From a virus: a DNA stretch of 42,173 nucleotides. Under the pieces are notes generated by a model that searched no databases, was not told the DNA's origin, and worked only from the letters and a program-made list of their open reading frames with translations. The stretch lies in the IMG/VR virus record IMGVR_UViG_3300029927_000113. One strand, given 5' to 3'. Made by a program: the position numbers and the translations under genes. Position 1 is the first letter of the stretch. Every line of letters starts with the position of its first letter. Below are positions 1-42,173 of the stretch, in pieces.

Positions 1-120
1 GAGGCTCAAGCCAAGATCGATGAGGAGGCTCAAGCCAAGATCGATGAGGAGGCTCAAGCCAAGATCGATGAGGAGGCTCAAGCCAAGATCGATGAGGAGG
101 CTCAAGCCACGGCCAAAGAC
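1..120 (+). repeat. Perfect 24-bp tandem repeat GAGGCTCAAGCCAAGATCGATGAG x4 plus a degenerate fifth unit (coding, EAQAKIDE)
   Basis: Units at 1-24, 25-48, 49-72 and 73-96 are identical. 97-120 is GAGGCTCAAGCCACGGCCAAAGAC. Confidence 0.95.
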
Positions 121-9177: not shown

Positions 9178-9672
9178 ATGACAGTAAATCTTAGCCAAAT
9201 CCGTCGATACATAGTTATTCCGACGCTACATAAACTCGGCCTTTATTCTGATGCTGCCGAACGCCTGGTCATGGCAACTGGAATGGCAGAGAGTAATTTT
9301 TCATATATAGATCAAGTCGAACGTGGTGGAGACAAGCATGCTGGTACGGCATTCGGGTTCTTCCAAATGGAAGGTGCAACCCACAATGATTTACATAGAA
9401 ATTTTCTGAAATTTAAACCGGAGTTATTACAAAAACTCTCTATTTTAAGATCACCATATCCAGATGGCGCAATCCAGATGCAAGGCAATATGAATTATGC
9501 CGCGGCAATGTGCCGTATCCATTATCGCAGGATTAAAGCACCGTTACCAAAAGCAAATGATATCGAGGGTTTGGCGCATTATTGGAAAAAATATTACAAC
9601 ACGCATTTAGGCGCAGGAACTATTGACGGGTTTATTCAAAAATCCATGCCTGTTTGGGATTTATATAAGTGA
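9178..9672 (+). CDS. Endolysin, SLT-type lytic transglycosylase-like
   Basis: GMAESNFSY...GTAFGFFQMEGATH resembles the SLT catalytic E-S / GLMQ motifs. Flanked by small membrane proteins and spanins. Confidence 0.6.
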   Translation: MTVNLSQIRRYIVIPTLHKLGLYSDAAERLVMATGMAESNFSYIDQVERGGDKHAGTAFGFFQMEGATHNDLHRNFLKFKPELLQKLSILRSPYPDGAIQMQGNMNYAAAMCRIHYRRIKAPLPKANDIEGLAHYWKKYYNTHLGAGTIDGFIQKSMPVWDLYK

Positions 9673-9678
9673 GGAAAT

Positions 9679-9897
9679 ATGCTTGGGAAAGATCCAGATG
9701 ATAATCTTAAGAACCGCCGCGCGATTGCATTTATCGCGTTTTTTTATGTTCTTATTTGGCCATTCATAATACTTGCCGCACACATGTTTTTTGACCTCGA
9801 CATTGATGCAGCCACTTTGTTTTTGAGCTATGGGGGTGTCTTTGGTGGCTCTCCCATAGTTGCCTATTTTATCGCCGCACAAAAGGATAGCAAATGA
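9679..9897 (+). CDS. Two-TM small membrane protein (holin candidate)
   Basis: 72 aa with two hydrophobic helices (AIAFIAFFYVLIWPFIILAAHMFF and VFGGSPIVAYFIAA) and a charged C-terminus. Confidence 0.5.
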   Translation: MLGKDPDDNLKNRRAIAFIAFFYVLIWPFIILAAHMFFDLDIDAATLFLSYGGVFGGSPIVAYFIAAQKDSK

Positions 9898-10175
9898 TAT
9901 TTTTATTCAAATATAGAAGAGTCCTGATTGGTGCGGCACTTGTAACTATCGTCATTGGCACTGGATTTATATTACGTCACAAAAGCTATAACGCAGGTTA
10001 TAGCAAGCGTGTAGCCGAAGAGGGCGCAGCCATAGTTCGTGCCAGTAATTTAGCACGTGCGCGGATTGTTGAAACGGAAAGAAAATACGATGAAATTATC
10101 AAAGAAATCCAAAACACCGAAAGTACAAATAATTGTGTTGGTGATCATGTGCGCCATGTTCTTGACCGCCTGTAA
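9894..10175 (+). CDS. i-spanin (Rz-like)
   Basis: 93 aa with an N-terminal TM (VLIGAALVTIVIGTGFIL) and a charged helical periplasmic part. ATGA overlap with the upstream gene. A lipoprotein ORF starts within it in another frame. Confidence 0.6.
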   Translation: MIFLFKYRRVLIGAALVTIVIGTGFILRHKSYNAGYSKRVAEEGAAIVRASNLARARIVETERKYDEIIKEIQNTESTNNCVGDHVRHVLDRL

Positions 10176-10323
10176 CGGTAACGTAATCATTGCAAATGAC
10201 CCCCATGATGAATGTGCCCATCCACAAAAACCACCCAAACCCTATGCCGATAAAGCCACCGCGATCTTTGTGGCAGAACAAAGCAAAGCCATAAATAAAT
10301 GCCGCGCATTACTTGGTAAATAA
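10090..10323 (+). CDS. o-spanin (Rz1-like lipoprotein), overlapping architecture
   Basis: MKLSKKSKTPKVQIIVLVIMCAMFLTAC has a signal sequence and lipobox (FLTAC). The mature part is ~50 aa and Pro-rich (HPQKPPKPY). It starts inside the i-spanin gene in a different frame and extends beyond it. Confidence 0.7.
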   Translation: MKLSKKSKTPKVQIIVLVIMCAMFLTACNGNVIIANDPHDECAHPQKPPKPYADKATAIFVAEQSKAINKCRALLGK

Positions 10324-12616: not shown

Positions 12617-13360
12617 CTATTTCTTTACTGCTTTTTTTCGTTGCTGTCTTGGAGGTATTCTTTCTTTCAACGCTTCTGCCTTATCTGTAAGAATTAAATT
12701 CCTATAAATAAATTGTTCAACAATATTTATCATAGTATGAAGTTCTGGTTCTGTTGGACTCCAGCTGCGGTGGGCAGCCGCTCCACCTGCATCAGTAAGA
12801 ATATCTAAAACTCTCTTTTCATCTATTCCTATCTTCCCCTTCAAAAGTAAATCATCTAACTTTTTTTGAAAAGATTGTGCAGTATCAATTCCCAAAGCTT
12901 CTGTCGATGCGTCAAAGGCTGTTCTTATACCTGTTGCTGTTAGGATCTTAAGATCACTATTAAAGGCTACATATATTTCTTGAAGGATATTATACAGGGG
13001 TTCATTTGAAATTTTTATTTTGTGAATCCAAATCGGCTTTTTTCGCCGGATTGGAGATGGCCAATAAGATATATCTTCATAGTAATTCTCTTCAACCTCG
13101 CCAGTAATAGGGTGATAATATTTGTTAATATCTTCTGAAAACACACTTATAGTTTGATGATAGACTGTTTCACACCCACAGCACTTTAATATTCTATGTC
13201 TATAAAGCATCCAAACACAGTTATAGTCATCACCATCCTCATCTTTAAACTCATACTTGGCAACAATATCCGCATTAATTTGTCCACCACAATCTGGACA
13301 ATTTGCCTTTATTTTTTCTACTGTCATTTTTTGTCTGTCCATATAATGAAGATTTAACAC
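12617..13360 (-). CDS. Zn-ribbon + DUF4145-like domain protein (accessory; function unknown)
   Basis: N-terminal CPDCGG...CCGCETV cysteine pairs. The C-terminal part, LYNILQEIYVAFNSDLKILTATGIRTAFDASTEALG...LLLKGKIGIDEKRVLDILTDAGGAAAHRSW, follows the DUF4145 pattern. AT-rich, convergent with the late operon. The true start may be an internal Met (MDRQK or MTVEK). Confidence 0.55.
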   Translation of the reverse strand: MLNLHYMDRQKMTVEKIKANCPDCGGQINADIVAKYEFKDEDGDDYNCVWMLYRHRILKCCGCETVYHQTISVFSEDINKYYHPITGEVEENYYEDISYWPSPIRRKKPIWIHKIKISNEPLYNILQEIYVAFNSDLKILTATGIRTAFDASTEALGIDTAQSFQKKLDDLLLKGKIGIDEKRVLDILTDAGGAAAHRSWSPTEPELHTMINIVEQFIYRNLILTDKAEALKERIPPRQQRKKAVKK

Positions 13361-13561: not shown

Positions 13562-14392
13562 ATGGAATCCTTCTCACAAGTTCGCCCCCGCGAACCCGTT
13601 GCCCCGTATCAGGGTGGAAAATCCAAACTGGCAGATACGGTTATCTCATACATTAATCAGATACCCCATAACACCTATGCGGAGGTCTTTGTCGGTATGG
13701 GTGGGATATTCCTTCGCCGTGATTACAAGCCACCTGCAGAAGTCATCAACGATTACAGCCGTGATGTGTCCAACTTCTTTCGTGTCCTTCAAATACATTA
13801 TGTGGCGTTTCTGGATATGCTTAAATGGCAAATCACAACGCGTACAGAGTTTGAACGTTTAATCTCCATTGACCCGGACACATTAACCGATATGCAGCGC
13901 GCTGCACGCTTTCTGTATCTGCAGCGCACTAGCTTTGGCGGTAAAATTACAGGGCAAAATTTCGGCGTATCCAAGGATCGTCCAGCACGCTTTGATATAA
14001 CAAAGCTCTCAGCAACTTTAGAAGATGTCCATGAACGCCTGTCCAGCGTAACTATTGAGCGATTGGATTATAAAGACTTTATACGGCGTTACGATCAACC
14101 CGAATGTCTATTTTATTTGGACCCCCCATATTATGAGTGTGAATCCGATTACGGCAAAGAACTGTTTGATCGTGATGAGTTTCCAAAGATGGCAGATTTA
14201 CTGGCCGGAATAGAAGGGAAGTTCATCGTATCTTTAAATGACCACCCCGATGTCAGAGATATATTTAAAGCGTTCCATATTATAAGTGTAGAAACGACAT
14301 ATTCAATTTCCTCAAAAGAAAGCCAAAAAGTAGGGGAGGTCTTAATAACAAACGCTCAAGATCACTTCAGATCAGATGATCTGTTTGCTTAG
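13562..14392 (+). CDS. dam: DNA N6-adenine methyltransferase, Dam/D12 class
   Basis: PYQGGKSKLA, FVGMGGIF (motif I) and FYLDPPYY (motif IV, DPPY). Confidence 0.85.
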   Translation: MESFSQVRPREPVAPYQGGKSKLADTVISYINQIPHNTYAEVFVGMGGIFLRRDYKPPAEVINDYSRDVSNFFRVLQIHYVAFLDMLKWQITTRTEFERLISIDPDTLTDMQRAARFLYLQRTSFGGKITGQNFGVSKDRPARFDITKLSATLEDVHERLSSVTIERLDYKDFIRRYDQPECLFYLDPPYYECESDYGKELFDRDEFPKMADLLAGIEGKFIVSLNDHPDVRDIFKAFHIISVETTYSISSKESQKVGEVLITNAQDHFRSDDLFA

Positions 14393-15720: not shown

Positions 15721-16764
15721 ATGGCGAATTATAGCATAGCAAAACGCAGCGGCAAGTATTGTTGCCAATTACGCTGGATCCCTACAGGTACAAATAAACG
15801 TAAGTCTTGTAGCAGAACTTTCACCCGAAAAGCAACCGCCGAGGCATGGGGGAAGAAAAAACTTAACGATCTTGAGGCTGGTTTGTCTGCAGGAGAGGTT
15901 TTTGAATCTGTTTTATTGGGTGAGCTTCTTGATAAATACTTAGATGATAGGCATGTAAATATTGGCCGCTCAAAGCGTTATTCGTTAGCTATGATACGTG
16001 ACAGTGATATTGCCTCCATCGAGACGAAGAATTTGACCCCAAAACATATTGTTGATTATTGTAAGGATAGAAGTGACGCGGGAGCGAGTGCGGCCACAGT
16101 GTCGTGTGATGTAAGTAACCTACGTTCTGTTCTTAAGTGCGCCGAGGCTTTGTATGACATCCCTGTGACGGTGGAACCCATTGTTAAGGCCATGCCTACG
16201 CTTCATACATTAGGCCTGGTGGGTAAGGCAAAGATTAGAACGCGCAGGCCAACCAATGATGAAATTACGCGCTTACGCACAGGCCTGTTGGCTCGACAAA
16301 ATGGGCGAGGCGCGATCATTCCTTTTGTGGACCTATTAGATTTTTCCATACTAAGTTGCATGCGCATCAGTGAGGTGTGCAATTTAAAATGGGATGATTT
16401 GAATATTAATGAATCTTGGGTGTGGGTACGTGATCGTAAAGACCCGCGTAAAAAGGTTGGTAATCATATGAAGGTTCCACTGTTGGGTGGTTCTCTAGAT
16501 ATAGTGCTACGCCAGAAGAAAACTTATGATCCGCGTATATTCCCCTATAACAACACCTCTGTCAGTGCAGGGTTTCAACGTGTGCGTGATCAACTGGATA
16601 TTGAGGATTTACGTTATCATGATTTAAGAAGAGAGGGTGCAAGCCGTTTGTTCGAAGCAGGCTATAAGATTGATGAAGTTGCGCAAGTAACTGGGCACCG
16701 TGATTTAAATACATTATGGCGTATTTATACCGATTTGAACCCAACTAGAATTACCGACCGATAG
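15721..16764 (+). CDS. int: Tyrosine site-specific integrase
   Basis: 347 aa. The C-terminal catalytic region contains CMRISEV, HDLRREGASRLFEAGY and VTGHRDLNTLWRIYTD (R..HxxR..Y pattern). Confidence 0.9.
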   Translation: MANYSIAKRSGKYCCQLRWIPTGTNKRKSCSRTFTRKATAEAWGKKKLNDLEAGLSAGEVFESVLLGELLDKYLDDRHVNIGRSKRYSLAMIRDSDIASIETKNLTPKHIVDYCKDRSDAGASAATVSCDVSNLRSVLKCAEALYDIPVTVEPIVKAMPTLHTLGLVGKAKIRTRRPTNDEITRLRTGLLARQNGRGAIIPFVDLLDFSILSCMRISEVCNLKWDDLNINESWVWVRDRKDPRKKVGNHMKVPLLGGSLDIVLRQKKTYDPRIFPYNNTSVSAGFQRVRDQLDIEDLRYHDLRREGASRLFEAGYKIDEVAQVTGHRDLNTLWRIYTDLNPTRITDR

Positions 16765-19108: not shown

Positions 19109-19442
19109 GCTGTGCCTTTCTAATGTTTTGCTGTAAAAGTGATTTTGGTTGATACGCCCACCGCGTTATGGGTGGCATAAATTGATTGCCTGTGGCGGCA
19201 CAACGCCAAGCGCCAAGTATTCCGAGTTTTAAAATATGATAGTTGCCGTCCAGACTTTGCGCGTATACGGCCTGTCCACGTGTTGGAAGATGGTCATTCG
19301 TGTATCTAAAATGTAAGAACTCAGTATCGATCATCCAGTTCATAATGTTCAGGATGTTTGCACGTAATTCCTTATCAAGAACCGCGCTAGCGCATAAGCG
19401 AGATAGGGTATCGATATGGTCACTTTTTACTGCGTCTGGCAT
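19101..19442 (-). CDS. Hypothetical early protein
   Basis: 113 aa. Overlaps its neighbours by 8 and 16 nt. Confidence 0.6.
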   Translation of the reverse strand: MPDAVKSDHIDTLSRLCASAVLDKELRANILNIMNWMIDTEFLHFRYTNDHLPTRGQAVYAQSLDGNYHILKLGILGAWRCAATGNQFMPPITRWAYQPKSLLQQNIRKAQHA

Positions 19443-19650: not shown

Positions 19651-19914
19651 TCAAGCCTTCTTGAATTTTTGAAGGGACTTGAAACTGCAATATCTGCGTG
19701 TATCGATAAATTGCACCAAATACTGGTCTGGTTTTTCGACCATGCCGCGACGAATGATTTGACGGACAGTGCCGAAATAAATCTCACCGCTATCAGATGT
19801 GAACATCACATCATCACCTACATAAATTTCCTGCGCATTATCATTCGCAAATTCTTCACCCTGTGTATTTGGGGAAATGAATTGTTTTAAGTTTTGATAT
19901 GTATCTTGTTTCAT
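19651..19914 (-). CDS. First gene of the leftward early operon, hypothetical
   Basis: Likely starts at MKQDTYQNLKQ (ATG at 19914) after an AAGGA RBS. The track ORF extends to 19962. Confidence 0.6.
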   Translation of the reverse strand: MKQDTYQNLKQFISPNTQGEEFANDNAQEIYVGDDVMFTSDSGEIYFGTVRQIIRRGMVEKPDQYLVQFIDTRRYCSFKSLQKFKKA

Positions 19915-19950
19915 TTTATTCCTTCGCAGAATTATTCTGTTTATGAAGGG

Positions 19951-19979
19951 ATATTGTCCCAAAATGAGACATTAGTCAA
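19951..19979 (-). promoter_or_regulatory. Candidate leftward early promoter with overlapping operator (PL/OL-like)
   Basis: The minus strand reads TTGACT-AATGTCTCATTTTGGGA-CAATAT (17-nt spacer). 21 of 29 positions are shared with the element at 23439-23467. Confidence 0.45.
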
Positions 19980-20133
19980 TATAAAAAGTCGCATATACGG
20001 ACTCTACGGATTGAGATATTGAAAATATACCGATTACCTGCGGTGTTTAGGGTGTGGGTAGCTGTGCAATTTTATAAAGGGCAGGCGACTTTATGTTCAC
20101 AGACACTATAGAAACCTCTATGCGGTTAATAAA

Positions 20134-20316
20134 TCAATCTGGAAATAGAGAACGGATCAAGCGATAGGGTGATATTTTAATACATACCCGCCTAATATTT
20201 TTACATGCTGCTATAATTATATTACATAAAACAATGAGAAAGATTTTGTTAAATGCGTGCTTTGCAACATCATCAGTCACCGTGCACGTAATATTTTTAA
20301 ACTCAAATTTATTCAT
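20134..20316 (-). CDS. Small hydrophobic hypothetical protein (60 aa)
   Basis: Strong RBS AAAGGAG 5-6 nt upstream of the ATG. MNKFEFKNITCTVTDDVAKHAFNKIFLIVLCNIIIAACKNIRRVCIKISPYRLIRSLFPD. Very AT-rich and isolated in a ~650-bp gene-poor stretch. Confidence 0.35.
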   Translation of the reverse strand: MNKFEFKNITCTVTDDVAKHAFNKIFLIVLCNIIIAACKNIRRVCIKISPYRLIRSLFPD

Positions 20317-20578
20317 TAATACTCCTTTTTGGGCATAGTTTTCCTGTTTGCAAAAACCCCGTTGCTGAGGCTATTACATAGTTTTAATTTCCTATATCAA
20401 AATTCTGATATGGCTAGAATCTACATGATCGTACAAAATATGTCAAACAAGATCGTCGTGTAAACAATTGAAAATAAAGGATTTTTTTATAAACATTTAG
20501 TTTATACCCACACTGTAAGTTAGTGTAGGTGAGTGTTTGCCGAGGTGAAAATTTTACAAATTTACAAAATTATGGCAC

Positions 20579-20598
20579 AAAAAAAACACCCGAAGGTG
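20579..20598 (-). terminator. Short hairpin (CACC-UUCG-GGUG) + U8 after the GNAT gene
   Basis: The minus strand reads CCACCTTCGGGTGTTTTTTTT immediately downstream of the stop at 20621. The stem is only 4 bp. Confidence 0.35.
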
Positions 20599-20620
20599 GT
20601 TTGTGGAGAGTGGGAAGGGT

Positions 20621-21169
20621 TTATTCAGGGATGTAATCGTCTGATTTATCCTCTTCACCTATTACTTTCATGCCGAGTCGCTCATAGAAGGGGACGGAAT
20701 TTACTTTATTTGTATCGCGGGTGTTGAGGTAGACTATTTCATTCTCTTTGAACAGCTCGGCCAGAACAGAAGACACATAGAAGTTACCGAGGCCTTTACC
20801 GCAATGTTCAGGAAACAATCCGACTTTATAAATCTCTGCGGCCACCGCGCCTGATTTTGTATTAAAGTGTCCAGACATGCCCTCACTTTCCAATGCTTGA
20901 CAAAAACCAACAGTTTCATCGCCTTTTTTAAAAAGAAAGAGGCTTGATCTTGTTTTTTCAATCCGGTCTTTTAAATCATTGAGATAGTTAGGGTCATAAT
21001 AAACGGTTCTTTTATCCCACTTTGAATCTTCGCCTACTTTTAAAATGTAATCTAAAAGCATGTTGATATCGGGCTTTTCTCGCACAATACTGAGTTGGCC
21101 GCTTTCGTCCTCAGTTATTCCAGAGAAATCATCTTTAGTCGCGGATATATGTGTAAGCTTAAAGGTCAT
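20621..21169 (-). CDS. GNAT-family N-acetyltransferase
   Basis: VGFCQALE...AAEIYKVGLFPEHCGKGLGNFYVSSVLAELF contains the acetyl-CoA-binding Q/RxxGxG-type loop (HCGKGLG). Likely starts at MTFKLTH, whose ATG overlaps the upstream TGA (ATGA at 21166-21169). Confidence 0.75.
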   Translation of the reverse strand: MTFKLTHISATKDDFSGITEDESGQLSIVREKPDINMLLDYILKVGEDSKWDKRTVYYDPNYLNDLKDRIEKTRSSLFLFKKGDETVGFCQALESEGMSGHFNTKSGAVAAEIYKVGLFPEHCGKGLGNFYVSSVLAELFKENEIVYLNTRDTNKVNSVPFYERLGMKVIGEEDKSDDYIPE

Positions 21170-21801
21170 GCCAAGCTGTCCCAAACAATATTGAATATAA
21201 CAGTTTGTGCGGCAGCCATGCTCTCTCTTGAAATTATTTCAATTCTCAATTCATCACCAAATGTAATGAACGCGACATTCTCACCGAATATATATGTTGA
21301 TACGTTCTTAAAATCTCTGCGCGGCATCCATTTATACTGCGCAAAACTATCTGCTATAGGTTCACCGCCGCGTTCGGCAATAATTCTCATGTTTATATTA
21401 TCTTTAATGTCGCCCATACGTAGTGCGTGATGTTTATACCAATCTTCTCCAAGGTGTTCTATCCATAGAGCCGTCGAGCCGTTTAGGATAAATAAGTCTC
21501 CGCCTCTGCTGCTGGCCACTTCGTATACGCTATCCATCAACGCACGAAAACCATAACGACCATATAGCTTCGTTATTTCATCGCGTGGTTTAAACTCCAT
21601 ACCGCCATACTCTGTCTTGCGTATGCCTTTACTCTCAAAGAGTTTACTTATTTTATCCATAGACGCTTTAGCCAATGATGACTTTCCACTGTCATTATTA
21701 CTTAAATTTGATCGAGAAATCCCTGTTGCGTCTGAAAGGTCTGAAAAATTCATGCGAAGTAGGGCGATGCCCGCTGCAATTTGCTCTTTTGAGTAATCCA
21801 T
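21166..21801 (-). CDS. HTH (XRE-like) N-terminal domain protein with ~150-aa unknown C-terminal domain
   Basis: IAAGIALLRMNFSDLSDATGISRSNLSNNDSG is an HTH. The C-terminal domain is not recognised. Translationally coupled to the GNAT gene. Confidence 0.7.
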   Translation of the reverse strand: MDYSKEQIAAGIALLRMNFSDLSDATGISRSNLSNNDSGKSSLAKASMDKISKLFESKGIRKTEYGGMEFKPRDEITKLYGRYGFRALMDSVYEVASSRGGDLFILNGSTALWIEHLGEDWYKHHALRMGDIKDNINMRIIAERGGEPIADSFAQYKWMPRRDFKNVSTYIFGENVAFITFGDELRIEIISRESMAAAQTVIFNIVWDSLA

Positions 21802-21828
21802 TATTCTTCATCCATTATTTTCTGAGTT

Positions 21829-21857
21829 ATTTATACTCCAAAAGATAATTAAGTCAA
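21829..21857 (-). promoter_or_regulatory. Sigma70-like promoter for the HTH-GNAT operon
   Basis: The minus strand reads TTGACT (21857-21852), a 17-nt spacer, then TATAAA (21834-21829). Confidence 0.45.
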
Positions 21858-21939
21858 TGCATATTTTATCACATATAATACATTTATAATATACAATGGT
21901 ATATATTTTACTGATATTAATAAAATTTGCACTATTTCC

Positions 21940-21969
21940 TTGACATAATCCCGTCACATTCACTATACA
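21940..21969 (+). promoter_or_regulatory. Sigma70-like promoter for the small + strand ORF
   Basis: TTGACA (21940-21945), an 18-nt spacer, then TATACA (21964-21969). Confidence 0.35.
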
Positions 21970-22070
21970 TAGCTCATCGCATAACTGATTATGCAAAACA
22001 CTAGAAGACTTTAAGTGTGTTGGAGGAGGTCTGAAAATCTCCATAAAAACAATAAAAACAGGAGATTATT

Positions 22071-22244
22071 ATGAACCAGAATAAAAAGATAAATATTGAT
22101 AAGAGTGATTTGGATTTAGAGGCATTGCAGCGTGTATATGATTTTTTTCACAAAATGGCACTTTATCGCCGCGCTGCGAATGACTCTGAAATTGCAGCAA
22201 TAGAAAAATTAAAGGAAGAATACACGGATATCATAAGCGATTAA
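22071..22244 (+). CDS. Small hypothetical protein (57 aa), divergent from the HTH-GNAT operon
   Basis: AGGAG RBS at 22060-22064. MNQNKKINIDKSDLDLEALQRVYDFFHKMALYRRAANDSEIAAIEKLKEEYTDIISD. Followed by a strong terminator. Below the track cut-off. Confidence 0.5.
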   Translation: MNQNKKINIDKSDLDLEALQRVYDFFHKMALYRRAANDSEIAAIEKLKEEYTDIISD

Positions 22245-22291
22245 TAGACTTTTTAGAAGCAAAGTCCCACAGCGATGCTTTTAAACTACTG

Positions 22292-24653: not shown

Positions 24654-25284
24654 GTTTTGCGCACAACATAATGTTGATCCCGCTATTTTCTCCCAATTAT
24701 TTCTAAATAAAGCCACCAGCCTTGTTAATGAACTTGAGGCATTGGAAACACCAACATGGGCAGCGGACGCGGTACTGGAAGAAGAAATTTGCACCCGCCG
24801 TGTCATTGACCCGAATTGCGGCACAGGTGTATTGGCAGAGGCCGCACGTCGAAAAGGGTATGAGGTCTACGCCAATGACATATTCAATTGGGGGTATGAG
24901 CATCAATCATATACTTATGATTTTCTATCAGAGCAGGGCGCACATCATCTTGGCGGTCTTGTGAGTGGCAGTACAGTATTCTTAAACCCACCGTTCAAAT
25001 TGTCCTGCGAGTTTCTTTTACAATGCCGATTACTTGGCGCGCGTAAGGTTATCTTGTTTCAAAATATTACATGGATGACTTCAAAAACACGTCGTGAATT
25101 TTGGAAAAATAACCCACCAACAAGAACATATATTTTTGCAGAGCGTGCAACCACTTGGCGCTTTGATGTGCCGGAACATAAACGCATCGGCACAACTTCA
25201 AAGACCTTCGCATTCTTTGTATGGGATGGATGGGACAACCCCGCCGCCCCAACCAGCCACCTTTTGTACAAGGGAGGTGCGTGA
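24643..25284 (+). CDS. N6-adenine DNA methyltransferase-like (small, orphan)
   Basis: VIDPNCGTGVLAEAA is AdoMet motif I and VFLNPPFK is motif IV (NPPF). Confidence 0.65.
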   Translation: MMLEFCAQHNVDPAIFSQLFLNKATSLVNELEALETPTWAADAVLEEEICTRRVIDPNCGTGVLAEAARRKGYEVYANDIFNWGYEHQSYTYDFLSEQGAHHLGGLVSGSTVFLNPPFKLSCEFLLQCRLLGARKVILFQNITWMTSKTRREFWKNNPPTRTYIFAERATTWRFDVPEHKRIGTTSKTFAFFVWDGWDNPAAPTSHLLYKGGA

Positions 25285-26648
25285 TGTATCAAATGTGCCT
25301 TGATAATGAATTAGTAATTGATAATTTTGCAGGTGGCGGTGGCGCGTCTGCAGGGATTGAAGCAGCATTAAACCGTCCGGTTAATATTGCAATTAATCAT
25401 GACCCAGAGGCGGTGGCGCTTCACAAGATAAATCACCCGCACACGCACCATTATTGCGAAGATGTATTTAGTATAAATCAACGTGAACTTGTTAAGGGTC
25501 GCCCAGTTGGACTTGTTTGGTTGTCGCCTGATTGCACCCACCATTCAAGAGCAAAGGGCGGTAGGCCAGTTAAGAAGAATATACGTGGTTTGGCATGGGT
25601 AGCACTACGTTGGGCAACATTACCAGCACCATCAAAACCGCGTGTAATTATGCTTGAGAACGTAGAAGAGTTTAAGGGATGGGGGCCGCTAGTAAATGGA
25701 AGGCCTTGTAAAGAGCGCAAAGGAAAGACGTTTAATCAATTCTGCGATGCTTTACGCGCACAGGGTTATGTCGTTGAATATCGCTCTCTTACAGCCTCAG
25801 ATTATGGTGCACCCACAAGACGCACAAGATTATTCCTTATCGCACGTAGCGATGGTCAGCCAATTGTATGGCCTAACCCTACACATGGTAAAAAGGGTTC
25901 TGGATTATTACCGGAAAAAATAGCCGGTGACTGCATAGATTGGTCGGTGCCTGGTCAAAGCATCTTTGGGCGCAAGCGTCCACTTGTTGAAAAAACAATG
26001 ATCCGTATAGCGCGTGGTATGCAGAAGTTTATAATTGATGATGACAATCCGTATATTGTTCCGCACCAAGGACACCACACGGCATCATTCATCAATGAGC
26101 ACGCAAATTCATCTAGCCAGAGAATAATTGATATTCAAAAACCACTACCTACAATTTGTGCGCAGGTTAAGGGCGGTCACTTCTCTTTGGTGTCAGCATA
26201 TTTAATACGGTATTTTGGTAACGGTTTTGCAAACTCAATCAAGCAACCAATACCAACAATCATGGCTGGCGGTGGTGGTAAAAGTGCCTTAGTCACTGCA
26301 TTTTTGGTGAAATATTATGGGGCAGATAAACACGGTCAGGCTTTAAACGTTCCGCTGGATACCATCACCACAAATGATCGTTTCGGCTTAGTCACGGTCA
26401 AAGGTATTGATTACCAAATTGTAGATATAACTCTACGAATGCTTTTATCAAGAGAGCTATATACAGCTCAAGGATTCACTAAAGATTACAAGATTGATTT
26501 TGAATATAACGGGCGACCATTAAGCAAAACGTCGAAGGTGCGTATGTGTGGCAATTCAGTTAGCCCCTATATGTCATACGTCCTAACTGACGCTAACTTC
26601 ATGCAATCATCCTTATTTGTTGATCAAAGATTTAGGCGGGTGTCATGA
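25284..26648 (+). CDS. DNA C5-cytosine methyltransferase
   Basis: DNFAGGGGAS (motif I), LSPDCTHHS (PC motif), MLENVEEF (ENV), TRRTRLFLIA (motif VIII), MCGNSVSP (motif X). ATG at 25284 follows AGGGAGG and overlaps the upstream TGA. Confidence 0.9.
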   Translation: MYQMCLDNELVIDNFAGGGGASAGIEAALNRPVNIAINHDPEAVALHKINHPHTHHYCEDVFSINQRELVKGRPVGLVWLSPDCTHHSRAKGGRPVKKNIRGLAWVALRWATLPAPSKPRVIMLENVEEFKGWGPLVNGRPCKERKGKTFNQFCDALRAQGYVVEYRSLTASDYGAPTRRTRLFLIARSDGQPIVWPNPTHGKKGSGLLPEKIAGDCIDWSVPGQSIFGRKRPLVEKTMIRIARGMQKFIIDDDNPYIVPHQGHHTASFINEHANSSSQRIIDIQKPLPTICAQVKGGHFSLVSAYLIRYFGNGFANSIKQPIPTIMAGGGGKSALVTAFLVKYYGADKHGQALNVPLDTITTNDRFGLVTVKGIDYQIVDITLRMLLSRELYTAQGFTKDYKIDFEYNGRPLSKTSKVRMCGNSVSPYMSYVLTDANFMQSSLFVDQRFRRVS

Positions 26649-29898: not shown

Positions 29899-30380
29899 AC
29901 CACACAGGCTTCGTTGATGAAAAATATATAAAAGTTATCGTTGAAAGCGCAGGGCGTACCCTGACAATGCTACCCAACACAGGGGCTTGGCCTGCGGGGT
30001 ATCGATCTTGTTGGCCTGAATATATTCGGGAGTGGGGCGACCTGATCGAAGCACCGAAAGAATTTAACCCACAGCGCATTCGCCCAACCGTGGCGCAGAT
30101 GAATGAACTTGAAACGGTGGAGGATTGGATTGTTGGTTTGGCCAATCATTGCCGCCGACGTCACCGCACCGAGATATCACGTTGCGTTGCCGCGGCGATG
30201 TTACATCACCCATTCATCGAAGGACGCAGGATCTATTCATTCCGTAAGTTGGGCAATATGTTTGGTACGTCAAATCACACGGTAAAGAAGTGGTACATGG
30301 AAGGCCTACACATCATCGCCAATAACGTCAATTTGGAGCAAAGCGCCAATGACACAAAACCACATTTTTTAACTGCATAG
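29895..30380 (+). CDS. Putative late-gene regulator (C-terminal sigma region-4-like HTH)
   Basis: FRKLGNMFGTSNHTVKKWYMEGLHIIANNV. It is the last gene of the rightward early operon. Function inferred from position only. Confidence 0.4.
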   Translation: MNHTGFVDEKYIKVIVESAGRTLTMLPNTGAWPAGYRSCWPEYIREWGDLIEAPKEFNPQRIRPTVAQMNELETVEDWIVGLANHCRRRHRTEISRCVAAAMLHHPFIEGRRIYSFRKLGNMFGTSNHTVKKWYMEGLHIIANNVNLEQSANDTKPHFLTA

Positions 30381-30447
30381 ACATCTTAAGCTAATCAATT
30401 TATGGTAGTTTTCTTAATAGTATAAGTTGAGTGGAATAATAAATAAT

Positions 30448-31734
30448 ATGGTAAGTATTAATAAAAAAAGCAAAAAACCTACTATCTACAGGATTACATC
30501 CGTATGTGGCGAACATATACCGTTCCGAACTAAAAAAGATCTTATTAAATGGTGCGAGAAGGAGGCCTTATTGTGGTCTACGTTTTTTGGTGTTTTTTCG
30601 AAATATGTTAATTCAAATAATAAGATCATGGGAAATGAAGGAAGGAGAATTTATTCAGAACTCATGAAAGAAATTCCAAAATACCAAGTAGAACCATATG
30701 AAACCTTAATTGAGACTATACTACTCTCGAACAATAGTATTGAAGGTGTAGAACGTGCGGTTAGTAATTTTAATGCTTCACCGTCATATGTATCCACGTC
30801 TGAGAAGGGTAAGAAAATAATTGAATTAAGTCATGATAGGATTGGAGTGTCAGTTTTACTTTTTTCTATTTTGCATCCAAATATTTGTGTTGAGACTATG
30901 CATATTACTACTGGAAACTATGCCAATGCTGCTTCTACAAAAGCAGTAAGTGCTGATTTGAACTATGCTCGAATAGAAGCATATCTTATTGAAAGTCAAT
31001 TTTTCTCAGAAACGAAGACTAAGAATGACATCTTGGATAAAATAATTTTTGATTCTAGATCCAAGCGTCATATGGCAGAAGAACTTTACACCGATCAAGT
31101 GGATTTAACTAATAAGATAAAGGATAGTTTGAGCAAGCTGGCTGCAGAGAAAACTCAAGAAATTGCAGAGTTTACCGAAAATCAGAATAACCTGCTAAAA
31201 GAAGAAAAGTTGAAATATGAGAATACATTAAAATCTCTAACGGAAACATATAAAACTGAATATGGGGTAAGGGAGGCTATTGAATACTGGAAGACTGAAC
31301 AACAGCAGTTTACTATCAATGCTACTCTTTGGGCTGTAGCACTCCTCGCCCTAATGTTGGCTTCTGTTAATCATTTTTCACTACTATTTTCATTCGTTTT
31401 GGAGGTCTTAGATACCCTTCCAGACTACGCTAAGTCACACTACGTTGTAATGTTCACAGTTTCTTTTCCAGTCTTCTTAGTAGTCTGGGTATTAAGGATT
31501 TGTGCAAGAAACTTGAACTGTAATTTAAGATATATGAATGAGGCCAGACATAGATTGGTTTTGACTAAAACCTTTTTGGCATTAATGGCAGGGGGACAAG
31601 CGGAAGGACCAGATAGAATATTAATCCTAAATGCTCTGTATCAGCCCCTAGAAAAACATTCCGATGATGGTATGCCTCCAAATTGGTACACATTAATCAT
31701 GGAACGTATGTCCAAAGATGTTGGCAAAGTGTAA
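30448..31734 (+). CDS. Membrane protein: soluble N-domain + coiled coil + C-terminal 2TM module (unknown function)
   Basis: Likely starts at ATG 30448 (MVSINKK); the track uses TTG at 30427. TM helices ATLWAVALLALMLASVNHF and VVMFTVSFPVFLVVWVL, followed by RICARNLNCNLRYMNEARHRLVLTKTFLAL. Very AT-rich. Confidence 0.6.
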   Translation: MVSINKKSKKPTIYRITSVCGEHIPFRTKKDLIKWCEKEALLWSTFFGVFSKYVNSNNKIMGNEGRRIYSELMKEIPKYQVEPYETLIETILLSNNSIEGVERAVSNFNASPSYVSTSEKGKKIIELSHDRIGVSVLLFSILHPNICVETMHITTGNYANAASTKAVSADLNYARIEAYLIESQFFSETKTKNDILDKIIFDSRSKRHMAEELYTDQVDLTNKIKDSLSKLAAEKTQEIAEFTENQNNLLKEEKLKYENTLKSLTETYKTEYGVREAIEYWKTEQQQFTINATLWAVALLALMLASVNHFSLLFSFVLEVLDTLPDYAKSHYVVMFTVSFPVFLVVWVLRICARNLNCNLRYMNEARHRLVLTKTFLALMAGGQAEGPDRILILNALYQPLEKHSDDGMPPNWYTLIMERMSKDVGKV

Positions 31735-31827
31735 TTCGTCCTAGCATTAACTTGGTACTGAGTGATAAAGACAATAAATTTATTTTTGCAATTGATGACC
31801 CAAATCCGTTGAAAAAGAAGGATCTAA

Positions 31828-32886
31828 TCAACCTTCCTTCGCTGCCTTAATGATTGCAGTGATATCTTTAAGGCTTGCACCTTCAATTGTTTCGGTTCTG
31901 ATTTTATCCAGCTCAACCGTGCTTTCACCTTTTTTCAGTACAAAATTTCTCTCTGTATTGGATAGTTTCTCAATCAATTTATTGATAACGGCTTTATTTT
32001 CATGTCGTATAGCAACTGTAAGCGCAAGGAAGGTCATCTCTATATTGGTCATTTCATTCTGAATATATCTGATTTCTTCTAGTCCTGATCTGTAAACACG
32101 CAAGAAGAAATAGGCGAAGGTTTGTATCAGTATACTGACCGATAATTTCGGAAGGAATGCTGCTAAGAAGTTCTCATTATTTATAGGCGTTAGACCAAGG
32201 AAGTTAGGGAACGCCGCAAAACTCAATATAATAACCGCAACGACAGTGAATGAAATACTGGTAATCATGGTTCGCCTGGTTCTTACCTTTAGCAAGGCGA
32301 TATATTCTATTAGTCTGATCTTTGTTTCACTGTATTGGTTTTCCACGTGGGATAGGGTTTCATAATCTCCGATATTTTTTTTATATTTTCTTTCAATATC
32401 ATTAGATATTTTTTGTAGAGCATTTTTATTTATTGATGCTGTAGACACTTTAGCTTTATCGAAATGATTTTCGAAGTTGAAGTCATATGATTTGAACATA
32501 TTACTATTGAGATTTCTCATCCATATTTCGTAATCTGATGGGCTGAAACTGTGCTGCATTTCCCTTGCTACGGCATCGTACTCGCCAAGCCTCCAATGTT
32601 TTGAGAAAAGAGGAAGAAGATAAACTAATGCAGCACTAGCTGTTGCTATTGTCATTGCTTTGAAAGCATTGCTCTTTTCGCCCCCCCAAAACACCTCTGA
32701 AAATCTAGGGCCAAGCTCGTTGAATCCAAAAACATCTAGTATTGCTGTCAAGATTATTAGAGCAATTAAAGTTAACGCCGTAAATCTCCACAAATTCGCT
32801 TTTTTCTTTAATTTCATTTCATTGTCCAAATCTGCCGAACTAGCCGCATCACTTTTGGCAGTATCTTCATTATCCATATCTGACAT
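31828..32886 (-). CDS. Four-TM membrane protein (unknown function), convergent with the previous gene
   Basis: TM pairs at LWRFTALTLIALIILTAILDVF / AMTIATASAALVYLLPLF and MITSISFTVVAVIILSFAAF / LSVSILIQTFAYFFL, followed by RVYRSGLEEIRYIQNEMTNIEMTFLAL. AT-rich. Confidence 0.6.
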   Translation of the reverse strand: MSDMDNEDTAKSDAASSADLDNEMKLKKKANLWRFTALTLIALIILTAILDVFGFNELGPRFSEVFWGGEKSNAFKAMTIATASAALVYLLPLFSKHWRLGEYDAVAREMQHSFSPSDYEIWMRNLNSNMFKSYDFNFENHFDKAKVSTASINKNALQKISNDIERKYKKNIGDYETLSHVENQYSETKIRLIEYIALLKVRTRRTMITSISFTVVAVIILSFAAFPNFLGLTPINNENFLAAFLPKLSVSILIQTFAYFFLRVYRSGLEEIRYIQNEMTNIEMTFLALTVAIRHENKAVINKLIEKLSNTERNFVLKKGESTVELDKIRTETIEGASLKDITAIIKAAKEG

Positions 32887-33034: not shown

Positions 33035-33219
33035 TTCAACCTGTTTTAAACAGGGGTTGAAAAAAACATTGTTTTGCACTTCCCACACTTCCCACTTTAG
33101 GCCTATATTTTATCTATGCTGTGGCGTTTTACGTTCGCGGCTTTTTTTATGCCCTGAATACCAACTCGTAAGCCACCCCTGTGGTCTTGCTTGAGTGCCC
33201 AGCCATTGTGTTCAGGGCA
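33035..33219 (+). promoter_or_regulatory. Structured non-coding leader upstream of the late operon
   Basis: Imperfect inverted repeat TTCAACCTGTTT/AAACAGGGGTTGAA at 33035-33061. Tandem CACTTCCCA x2 at 33077-33094. T7 tract at 33142-33148. Perfect 9-bp inverted repeat TGCCCTGAA / TTCAGGGCA at 33150-33158 and 33211-33219. Confidence 0.3.
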
Positions 33220-33246
33220 CCAGATACAAATTTAATAAAGGATTAT

Positions 33247-33576
33247 ATGATGAGCAAGAAAACGGCGAATATGCCGACGGATATACATGATAGGTCTATA
33301 CCTGCGCTATCCCTCACAAAGGCGCATGATATTATTATTCTTGCCGACGGTAAGTCTGCCGCAACTGAATTGAACAAAACATCGCCTGTGGTCAATATCG
33401 AGGTATCAGCAACCGTTCGTTTTGCCTTTGGCGCTGCAGATGTTGATGTGCTTGATACGGACTTCCAGTGGACGACTATGACCAGTCTTGGTGCTATTGC
33501 TGTGCCTACAGACGCAACACATATCCGCTTCCGTGGCGCGGAAAATGACACCATCCACATGATCGAGATGGGTTAA
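33247..33576 (+). CDS. Hypothetical protein, first gene of the late operon
   Basis: Starts at ATG 33247 after AAGGA (MMSKKTANMPTD...). 109 aa. Visibly more GC-rich than the flanks. Confidence 0.55.
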   Translation: MMSKKTANMPTDIHDRSIPALSLTKAHDIIILADGKSAATELNKTSPVVNIEVSATVRFAFGAADVDVLDTDFQWTTMTSLGAIAVPTDATHIRFRGAENDTIHMIEMG

Positions 33577-41858: not shown

Positions 41859-42173
41859 ATGCCTAAAAATATCAAAAAACTAAATGAAATTGTAGTCGCG
41901 TCACCTCAGGGTGGCACAATATACAGGGAACCAGTATCAGGCGATACTGTACCGTATGAGGGTAAAATCGTACCAGACACACCATTCTGGAGATTAATTG
42001 TTTCTCAAAAATTGGTTCTTGAAGTTGATGCCGATATGTTTTTAAGACAAAAGGCAAAGACCAAAGCAGATCAAGAGGCTCAAGCCAAGATCGATGAGGA
42101 GGCTCAAGCCAAGATCGATGAGGAGGCTCAAGCCAAGATCGATGAGGAGGCTCAAGCCAAGATCGATGAGGAG
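41859..42173 (+). CDS. Virion-module protein, 5' part (DUF2635-like N-terminus followed by EAQAKIDE repeats); continues across the junction into 1..198
   Basis: ATG at 41859 follows AGGAG at 41848-41852. 105 codons are open to the last base. Translation: MPKNIKKLNEIVVASPQGGTIYREPVSGDTVPYEGKIVPDTPFWRLIVSQKLVLEVD... The VPDxxFW motif resembles small Mu-type gp38/DUF2635 proteins (tentative). Not in the ORF track because it has no stop in the window. Confidence 0.75.
   Translation, partial: MPKNIKKLNEIVVASPQGGTIYREPVSGDTVPYEGKIVPDTPFWRLIVSQKLVLEVDADMFLRQKAKTKADQEAQAKIDEEAQAKIDEEAQAKIDEEAQAKIDEE
42075..42173 (+). repeat. Same 24-bp tandem repeat x4 + GAG at the window end (identical to 1-99)
   Basis: Units at 42075-42098, 42099-42122, 42123-42146 and 42147-42170, then GAG. 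The string is identical to bases 1-99. Confidence 0.95.

Follow-up and report, generated by a model that had tools for sequence, protein, structure and literature searches.

Gene layout and base composition

The stretch of viral DNA analysed here (IMG/VR record IMGVR_UViG_3300029927_000113, 42,173 nucleotides; called the window below) carries two convergent genes for membrane proteins, gpA and gpB, which lie between the replication genes and the packaging and head genes of a phage (Table 1). A preliminary description of the window, made from its letters, had interpreted the two proteins as related membrane-insertion modules with different sensor heads and had matched neither of them to a described family. 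Here, we found that gpA falls into the DUF6161 family and matches the model of the abortive-infection protein AbiZ, that gpB belongs to a widespread family without annotation (phrog_5157), and that neither sequence homology nor genomic co-occurrence connects the two families. Taken together, these data suggest that the locus probably harbours two independent single-gene cargo genes and not a two-gene system.

Scans for open reading frames (ORFs), terminators and folds confirmed two convergent ORFs of 428 (plus strand) and 352 amino acids (minus strand) separated by a 93-nt gap. A scan of this gap for terminator-like sites gave none, and its predicted fold is not more stable than those of shuffled versions (z = +0.37). 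The G+C counts made by hand for the preliminary description (12 of 60 nucleotides at the locus, 28 of 60 in a reference stretch) were exact. When we calculated the base composition of the gpA/gpB pair, we obtained a G+C content of 35.9%, compared with 41.8% in the rest of the window. The pair is the G+C minimum of the window for its length (about 2.4 kb); only 1% of the segments of equal length are as low, the runner-up being 19821-22260 with 36.4%. Since the hand counts, the ORFs, the gap and the transmembrane segments were all right, the descriptive part of the earlier account was correct.

Transcription of gpB runs antisense to the phage operons and gpA is co-oriented with the early operon. 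The start codon of gpB (ATG at 32886) is preceded at a distance of 6 nt by an AAGGA Shine-Dalgarno sequence. An Rfam search of the region returned nothing, and no match was obtained when the locus and both proteins were compared with GenBank phages by megablast and tblastn.

gpA and the AbiZ/DUF6161 family

When gpA was searched against Pfam, residues 211-399 matched DUF6161 (PF19658), a family of unknown function, with 43.4 bits (E 3.6e-11), which is above the gathering cut-off of 27 bits. In PADLOC, residues 183-398 aligned with positions 165-372 (of 398) of the AbiZ model PDLC02354 (E 1.8e-5). This model was also matched by 64 of 67 sampled gpA relatives (best E 1.1e-24), and the closest relatives carry a precomputed DUF6161 domain. 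These data suggest that gpA is a member of the AbiZ family, an assignment that rests partly on transitivity.

The family is large. An exhaustive profile search recovered 3352 cluster representatives at E<=1e-3, most of them about 400 amino acids long, and none of the names of their cluster members was informative. With a narrower alignment, the search for related loci yielded one viral locus (IMG/VR) and 16 metagenome loci, and tblastn against a plasmid collection recovered only a Rhizobium DUF6161 protein.

Two publications describe AbiZ as a single-gene lactococcal abortive-infection protein which makes infected cells lyse early and raises membrane permeability in holin-expressing cells; they report for it neither a recognisable domain nor a relative of solved structure (PMC13064643 and PMC6356687, both citing Durmaz & Klaenhammer 2007). 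DUF6161 has been flagged as a defence candidate by a protein language model, and the preprint states that homology of this family to known defence proteins is not detectable (bioRxiv 10.1101/2025.01.08.631966). The PADLOC matches of DUF6161 proteins to the AbiZ model obtained here qualify this statement. The link may have been overlooked in the preprint, or else the PADLOC model has moved away from the lactococcal protein.

The preliminary description had predicted a soluble head followed by two transmembrane (TM) segments for gpA, and a further TM pair plus a soluble region for gpB. Both Kyte-Doolittle hydropathy analysis and AlphaFold2 models confirmed these topologies. The gpA model is of high confidence (predicted local distance difference test score, pLDDT, 89.9). 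It starts with a helical head (residues 1-182), from which a helix of about 130 residues (188-323) leads into TM1. A 7-residue loop (324-330) connects it to the second long helix (331-381), which forms TM2 and continues as a 26-residue cytoplasmic helix. The short DRILILNAL helix (387-397), a loop and a terminal helix complete the chain. In the family alignment the N-terminal part is variable and the C-terminal membrane module is conserved, including a cytoplasmic tail of the form W-x-L-R-I...D-A-x-E-R...T-F-L-A-L...D-R-I-L-I-L.

A Foldseek search of the gpA model against PDB gave coiled-coil noise and nothing at E<=1e-3, which is in line with the published statement that AbiZ lacks solved-structure relatives. 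PDB sequences searched with the family profiles of gpA and gpB likewise gave coiled-coil noise only. NCBIfam contained no match to gpA or gpB, and neither protein matched a holin family.

gpB and the phrog_5157 family

Residues 167-347 of gpB aligned at E 7.8e-27 with positions 149-327 (of 331) of phrog_5157, a PHROG family without functional annotation. When gpB and 41 of its relatives were compared with Pfam, NCBIfam and PADLOC, no family was recovered, and a literature search for phrog_5157 found no publication. The earlier statement that neither protein could be matched to a described family fails for gpA, for which there are both a Pfam family and a PADLOC model. Members of the family occur in at least 90 IMG/VR viral contigs, on plasmids and in at least 170 bacterial species (Pseudomonadota, Bacteroidota, Acidobacteriota, Planctomycetota, Verrucomicrobiota, Chloroflexota and others), and phrog_5157 is enriched in prophage-like contigs.

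Hydropathy analysis indicated four TM segments in gpB (residues 37-55, 77-95, 208-226 and 240-258). From the family alignment it can be seen that the N-terminal half is variable and the C-terminal half strongly conserved. Both families thus combine variable N-termini with a membrane module that is conserved at the C-terminus, in agreement with the preliminary description. The conserved motifs of the gpB family read FFL[RK]LY...QNExTN...TERNFVLKKG, and F260, F261, L262, Y265, N277, E278, T280, E312, R313 and N314 are invariant or nearly so. gpB itself departs from the consensus at a few near-invariant positions (RRGNINL is replaced by RTRRTMI, and a membrane-embedded E by Q).

The AlphaFold2 model of gpB reached a pLDDT of 73 overall and of 85-92 in the conserved module (residues 150-310). 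The extra TM pair is followed by a soluble helical region. A helix comprising residues 148-229 then runs into TM3, a 7-residue loop leads to TM4, and TM4 is extended by a 32-residue cytoplasmic helix; the rest of the chain forms a short helix, the loop with TERNFVLKKGEST and a last helix at its end. Foldseek searches of this model against PDB and BFVD yielded coiled-coil noise and nothing at E<=1e-3. Taken together, gpB represents a widespread and horizontally mobile family that lacks annotation and has strikingly invariant cytoplasmic motifs.

Comparison of the two C-terminal modules

The preliminary description had proposed that both proteins share a C-terminal 'LR....RY..E......FLAL' motif and are paralogous or at least related. 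These letters are present in both sequences, but their agreement is no better than chance. BLASTP of gpA against gpB gave E-values between 0.99 and 17, the alignment shown in the preliminary description being the one with E=17. In profile-profile comparison by hhalign, the probability was 1.9% when the gpA profile was shallow and 14% when it contained 131 sequences; the trimmed modules reached 5% and the part behind the TM segments 0.2%. With a 168-sequence gpB profile the score was 23.9, and decoys of reversed sequence scored 24.5, 24.4 and 23.2. Because this comparison is non-significant and equals the reversed decoys, paralogy is refuted at the sequence level.

Further searches gave the same picture. 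When hidden Markov model (HMM) searches with the gpA module were run on gpB-family ORFs at relaxed thresholds, only E-values of 0.3-2 were obtained, for the N-terminal and the C-terminal hairpin alike, which indicates generic TM similarity. None of 42 gpB-family members matched DUF6161 or AbiZ, and a third homologue search, carried out with the gpB profile for intermediates bearing DUF6161, returned only family members among the matches listed. Moreover, the conserved columns differ. The gpB family alone keeps the 'RY'; among gpA relatives, H, Q, A or S occupies position 361, and position 362 is L in 66% of the sequences. Conversely, the 'F' of FLAL is kept only in the gpA family, 'FL' being unconserved in the gpB family.

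There are nevertheless arguments for a homologous module, paralogous or anciently related, on different sensor heads. The order and lengths of the helices, compared by their limits in the models of each protein, are alike and the layout is strikingly parallel: a long helix into the membrane, a 7-residue loop, a TM helix running 26-32 residues into the cytoplasm, a short helix, a loop of 10-15 residues and a terminal helix. Where the chain leaves the membrane both families conserve L-[RK], followed at a distance of exactly 16 positions by a conserved acidic residue (D365 in 95% of gpA relatives, E278 in 100% of gpB relatives), and hhalign sets the hairpins in the register that had been proposed. 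However, decoy-level scores, the indifference of the gpA HMM to which gpB hairpin it meets and the family-specific conservation of 'RY' and 'F' make common descent improbable. As judged from sequence, the similarity between the two C-terminal modules is one of helix layout without detectable homology.

Genomic neighbours of the two families

To compare the genomic contexts, we inspected 165 gpB loci and about 16 independent gpA-family loci. At none of the 165 gpB loci was a gpA-family gene present within 5-6 kb, and at none of the about 16 gpA-family loci was there a gpB-family gene; the contig analysed here is the sole case in which the two occur together. Thus, the co-occurrence expected of a two-gene defence or toxin-antitoxin pair was not observed.

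Most relatives of both proteins reside on chromosomes or plasmids, next to integrases. gpA relatives were found between two integrases (locus L002), directly behind an integrase on a Rhizobium plasmid (L190) and behind guaA (L001), and none of the loci L001, L002, L170-L186 and L190 showed a conserved partner. The gpB family behaves as a stand-alone gene, with no conserved neighbour among the 165 loci. Its immediate neighbours are mobile-element genes, some defence genes and ordinary housekeeping genes. The two largest neighbour clusters are integrases of the CP4 type and of the lambda type (11 and 10 of 165 loci), and plasmid copies adjoin an integrase, or DUF3800 together with toxin-antitoxin genes.

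Among the defence neighbours of the gpB family we identified TIR effectors, CD-NTase, PDC-S35, methyltransferases and PD-Lambda-5_B. According to the homology search, a gpB homologue lies beside a CD-NTase at two independent loci (L004/L005 from Maribacter, and L069-L071), and a PADLOC scan of the immediate neighbours added one more cyclase match. At two other loci (L105, L160) the homologue stands beside TIR proteins of the CAP12/Pycsar type. The gap between gpB homologue and defence gene measures 83-104 nt in L004, L105 and L160.

The phage genome around the pair

The ends of the window (1-99 and 42075-42173) overlap exactly over 99 nt of a 24-nt tandem unit (GAGGCTCAAGCCAAGATCGATGAG), and NCBI contig JAESRS010000022.1 contains the same phage in rotated form, with gpA at 19170 instead of 30448. 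The window therefore looks like the whole genome of a temperate phage, about 42 kb long and apparently circular, with the assembly break inside a coding tandem repeat. The phage contig was binned into a metagenome-assembled genome (MAG) of the Gammaproteobacteria.

Upstream of gpA there are genes for a DnaB helicase, a primosomal protein and a 161-aa protein. Downstream of the pair a 108-aa ORF is followed by genes for a neck or minor-tail protein, both terminase subunits (small and large), the portal protein and a fusion of protease and capsid protein. The preliminary description had located the pair between the late regulator and the late genes. Its position between the replication genes and the neck, terminase and portal genes holds, but the 161-aa protein, which matches phrog_6836 (no known function) and, below threshold, DUF6362, could not be confirmed as a late regulator. 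When relatives of the phage backbone were sought for the occupant of the same slot, a single distant locus (L187) was recovered, which was uninformative.

About 20 kb from the pair the window contains a candidate lysis cassette (Table 1). Its two distal ORFs resemble an i-spanin/o-spanin pair. The product of 9178-9672 gave no match when PDB was searched for endolysin relatives.

The leader of the first late-operon gene (33080-33249) contains three successive features, namely a promoter-like site, a terminator-like hairpin and a very stable structure, and has no Rfam match. These features might together act as late promoter, terminator and antitermination element, comparable to lambda PR'/tR' or HK022 put; a relation to cos is an alternative.

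Elsewhere in the genome there are two DNA methyltransferase genes (13562-14392 and 25221-26648), one of which matches phrog_56 while the other encodes a C5-cytosine methylase; they may represent anti-restriction cargo. A gene for a DUF4145 protein (12617-13360, minus strand; phrog_1305, 'DNA binding protein') adjoins a methyltransferase gene. DUF4145 is also encoded at L002 (5961-6767), in an integrase-flanked element, a few genes away from the closest gpA homologue (P0003). The low-G+C stretch 19821-22260 holds a GNAT acetyltransferase gene (20621-21184, minus strand) and unannotated minus-strand ORFs and may be another cargo region.

Table 1. Features of the gpA/gpB locus and of the phage genome, and loci at which gpB homologues adjoin defence genes (positions refer to the window unless a locus is named)
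Feature	Position	Strand	Remarks
gpA ORF	30448..31734	+	428 aa from ATG, 435 aa from TTG 30427; NCBI JKY93_01060; predicted inner-membrane protein, AbiZ/DUF6161 family
DUF6161 module of gpA	31078..31644	+	aa 211-399; stalk helix, TM hairpin, cytoplasmic juxtamembrane helix, DRILILNAL helix; Pfam, AbiZ HMM, AlphaFold2
gpA TM hairpin	31321..31512	+	aa ~292-314 and 333-355, 7-aa loop; Kyte-Doolittle, AlphaFold2
Convergent intergenic gap	31735..31827	.	93 nt; without intrinsic terminator
gpB ORF	31828..32886	-	352 aa, four TM; NCBI JKY93_01065 annotated as 349 aa; phrog_5157 family
Conserved C-terminal module of gpB	31846..32388	-	aa 167-347; stalk helix, TM3-TM4 hairpin, FFLRLYK...QNExTN helix, TERNFVLKKGEST motif
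N-terminal TM pair of gpB	32602..32778	-	aa 37-55 and 77-95; Kyte-Doolittle; poorly conserved in the family alignment
Promoter-like site TAGACA-17-TATGGT	30378..30406	+	consensus scan, 9/12 matches; in the 67-nt gap upstream of gpA
Promoter-like site	33080-33109	+	leader of late operon
Terminator-like hairpin, then U7	33118-33148		leader of late operon
Very stable structure	33150-33219		-31.6 kcal/mol, z = -4.0, 0/200 shuffles as stable
Integrase	15721-16764
Candidate lysis cassette	9178-10323		behind tail genes, ~20 kb from gpA/gpB
164-aa phrog_3108 protein			in candidate lysis cassette; unknown function, possible endolysin, unconfirmed; no PDB relative
Holin-like ORF	9679-9897		72 aa, two TM
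ORF with N-terminal TM helix	9894-10175		93 aa; overlaps lipobox ORF
ORF with lipobox LTAC	10057-10323		88 aa
gpB-family gene and CD-NTase with TIR-STING	L004 6001-9021		Maribacter cobaltidurans; co-oriented
gpB-family gene and CD-NTase	L069-L071 1-2668		co-oriented; CD-NTase cut at contig end, ~560 nt from gpB homologue
gpB-family gene and TIR	L105 4512-6597		co-oriented
gpB-family gene and TIR	L160 2310-4356		co-oriented

Discussion

We consider it probable that the locus consists of two independent, separately acquired single-gene cargo genes ('morons') which protect the lysogen, with gpA as an AbiZ-like protein. Their status as non-core cargo, already proposed in the preliminary description, is supported by the lowest G+C content in the window, the presence of a phage integrase and the occurrence of gpA relatives beside integrases or behind guaA. 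For gpA an abortive-infection or superinfection-exclusion function, one of the possibilities named earlier, is the best reading because of its AbiZ/DUF6161 relationship, but the pair to which this function had been ascribed recurs at none of the other loci inspected.

By analogy with lactococcal AbiZ, gpA would be made in the lysogen and would span the inner membrane as a hairpin whose N- and C-terminal ends both face the cytoplasm. On superinfection it may cooperate with the holin of the incoming phage, or otherwise lower the threshold for membrane permeabilisation, and the cell would lyse before the phage progeny is complete. gpB may be a separate lysogen-expressed membrane protein with a role in superinfection exclusion or abortive infection. 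Its antisense orientation, its stand-alone and integrase-adjacent occurrence, its occasional placement in defence islands and its AbiZ-like architecture suggest such a role, less strongly than family membership does for gpA.

One may go a step further and regard the gpB family as a new single-gene family of membrane-acting anti-phage proteins that arrived at the AbiZ-like succession of stalk, hairpin and tail by convergence, or retained it from a homology too old to be recognised. In that case, two different membrane-acting devices for abortive infection would be neighbours in this phage and form a small defence islet. This extension is tentative and, in our estimate, rather unlikely to be right as a whole. 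The family is nevertheless a reasonable candidate for defence screens and holds the remaining novelty of the locus.

Several observations weigh against the cargo interpretation with its protective function. gpA itself reaches a low score of 22 bits with the AbiZ model, and this match involves the C-terminal half only. The promoter match upstream of gpA is weak, and such sites are no commoner than in shuffled sequence. The association of the gpB family with defence genes is anecdotal and not a measured enrichment, many neighbours being housekeeping genes, and a defence role is putative for Gram-negative DUF6161 proteins as well as for the gpB family. Finally, a prophage that sensitises its host to holins must avoid aborting its own lytic cycle, and an element for self-immunity was not found.

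Alternatively, one or both genes might serve the lytic cycle of the phage itself, as lysis-timing modulator, antiholin or lysis-inhibition factor. AbiZ works via the holin and the lysis clock, the equivalent position in lambdoid phages (the boundary between early and packaging genes) carries lysis genes, and gpA shares the orientation of the early operon. However, the phage has a separate candidate lysis cassette far from the pair, and the operons on either side of gpB are both transcribed in the opposite direction. The relatives mostly lie on chromosomes or plasmids, outside phage late regions, and only one gpA-like gene was found in IMG/VR. In addition, holins and antiholins are TM proteins of about 70-150 amino acids encoded beside an endolysin, whereas gpA and gpB consist of 428 and 352 residues. 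A function in lysis timing, also put forward in the preliminary description, is therefore improbable.

A less probable alternative is that the gpB family comprises membrane effectors of cyclic-nucleotide signalling, as in CBASS (cyclic oligonucleotide-based antiphage signalling systems) or Pycsar and similar to the SLATT 2TM proteins, the copy in this phage being an orphan. The homologues beside CD-NTase and TIR genes are compatible with this idea, and Foldseek weakly matched a 'SMODS and SLOG-associating 2TM effector' protein. This match is non-significant (E 0.087), however, and no gpB-family member has a Pfam SLATT match. More than 95% of the loci lack a cyclase, and the CBASS operon of L004 already holds a TIR-STING effector. 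Taken together, such an assignment appears quite unlikely.

A functional two-gene system (effector with antagonist or immunity protein, or sensor with effector) is the least probable explanation: adjacency, the common low G+C content, the membrane nature of both proteins and the plausible need of a prophage-borne AbiZ-like protein for a self-immunity factor speak for it, but the lack of co-occurrence largely refutes it, including the effector-antagonist version considered earlier, the convergent orientation excludes a common transcript, and both families are found as lone genes beside integrases.

The record of this locus changes in three respects. One of the two 'orphans' is an AbiZ/DUF6161-family gene, the two proteins are not detectable paralogues, and they do not form a recurrent system. 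Our data also show that a DUF6161-family gene can be carried by a temperate phage.

Comparison with known systems

The SLATT 2TM effectors combine a TM hairpin with helical cytoplasmic parts and are in this respect similar to gpB. They differ in that gpB lacks a Pfam SLATT match and in that most gpB-family genes have no cyclase nearby.

Lambda RexB, P22 SieA and SieB, and T4 Imm and Sp are phage-encoded inner-membrane proteins of small to medium size; they are produced by the lysogen or at an early stage of infection, and it is at the membrane that they act on superinfecting phages. gpA and gpB can be likened to these exclusion proteins by analogy, similarity in sequence or structure to them not having been found. 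RexB needs RexA as a partner, whereas the gpA and gpB families stand alone.

The closest parallel for gpA is AbiZ, which is encoded by the Lactococcus lactis plasmid pTR2030 and reportedly contains two TM helices. The two proteins differ in their origin, since AbiZ comes from a plasmid of a Gram-positive bacterium and gpA from a phage of a gammaproteobacterial MAG. Moreover, the head of gpA (residues 1-182) lies outside the low-scoring HMM match. A relative of solved structure is known for neither protein. On the other hand, both consist of about 400 amino acids, carry two TM segments near the C-terminus, are encoded by a single gene and reside on a mobile element. The match of DUF6161 proteins to the AbiZ model ties a large proteobacterial family, with thousands of representatives, to a studied abortive-infection mechanism of Gram-positive bacteria.

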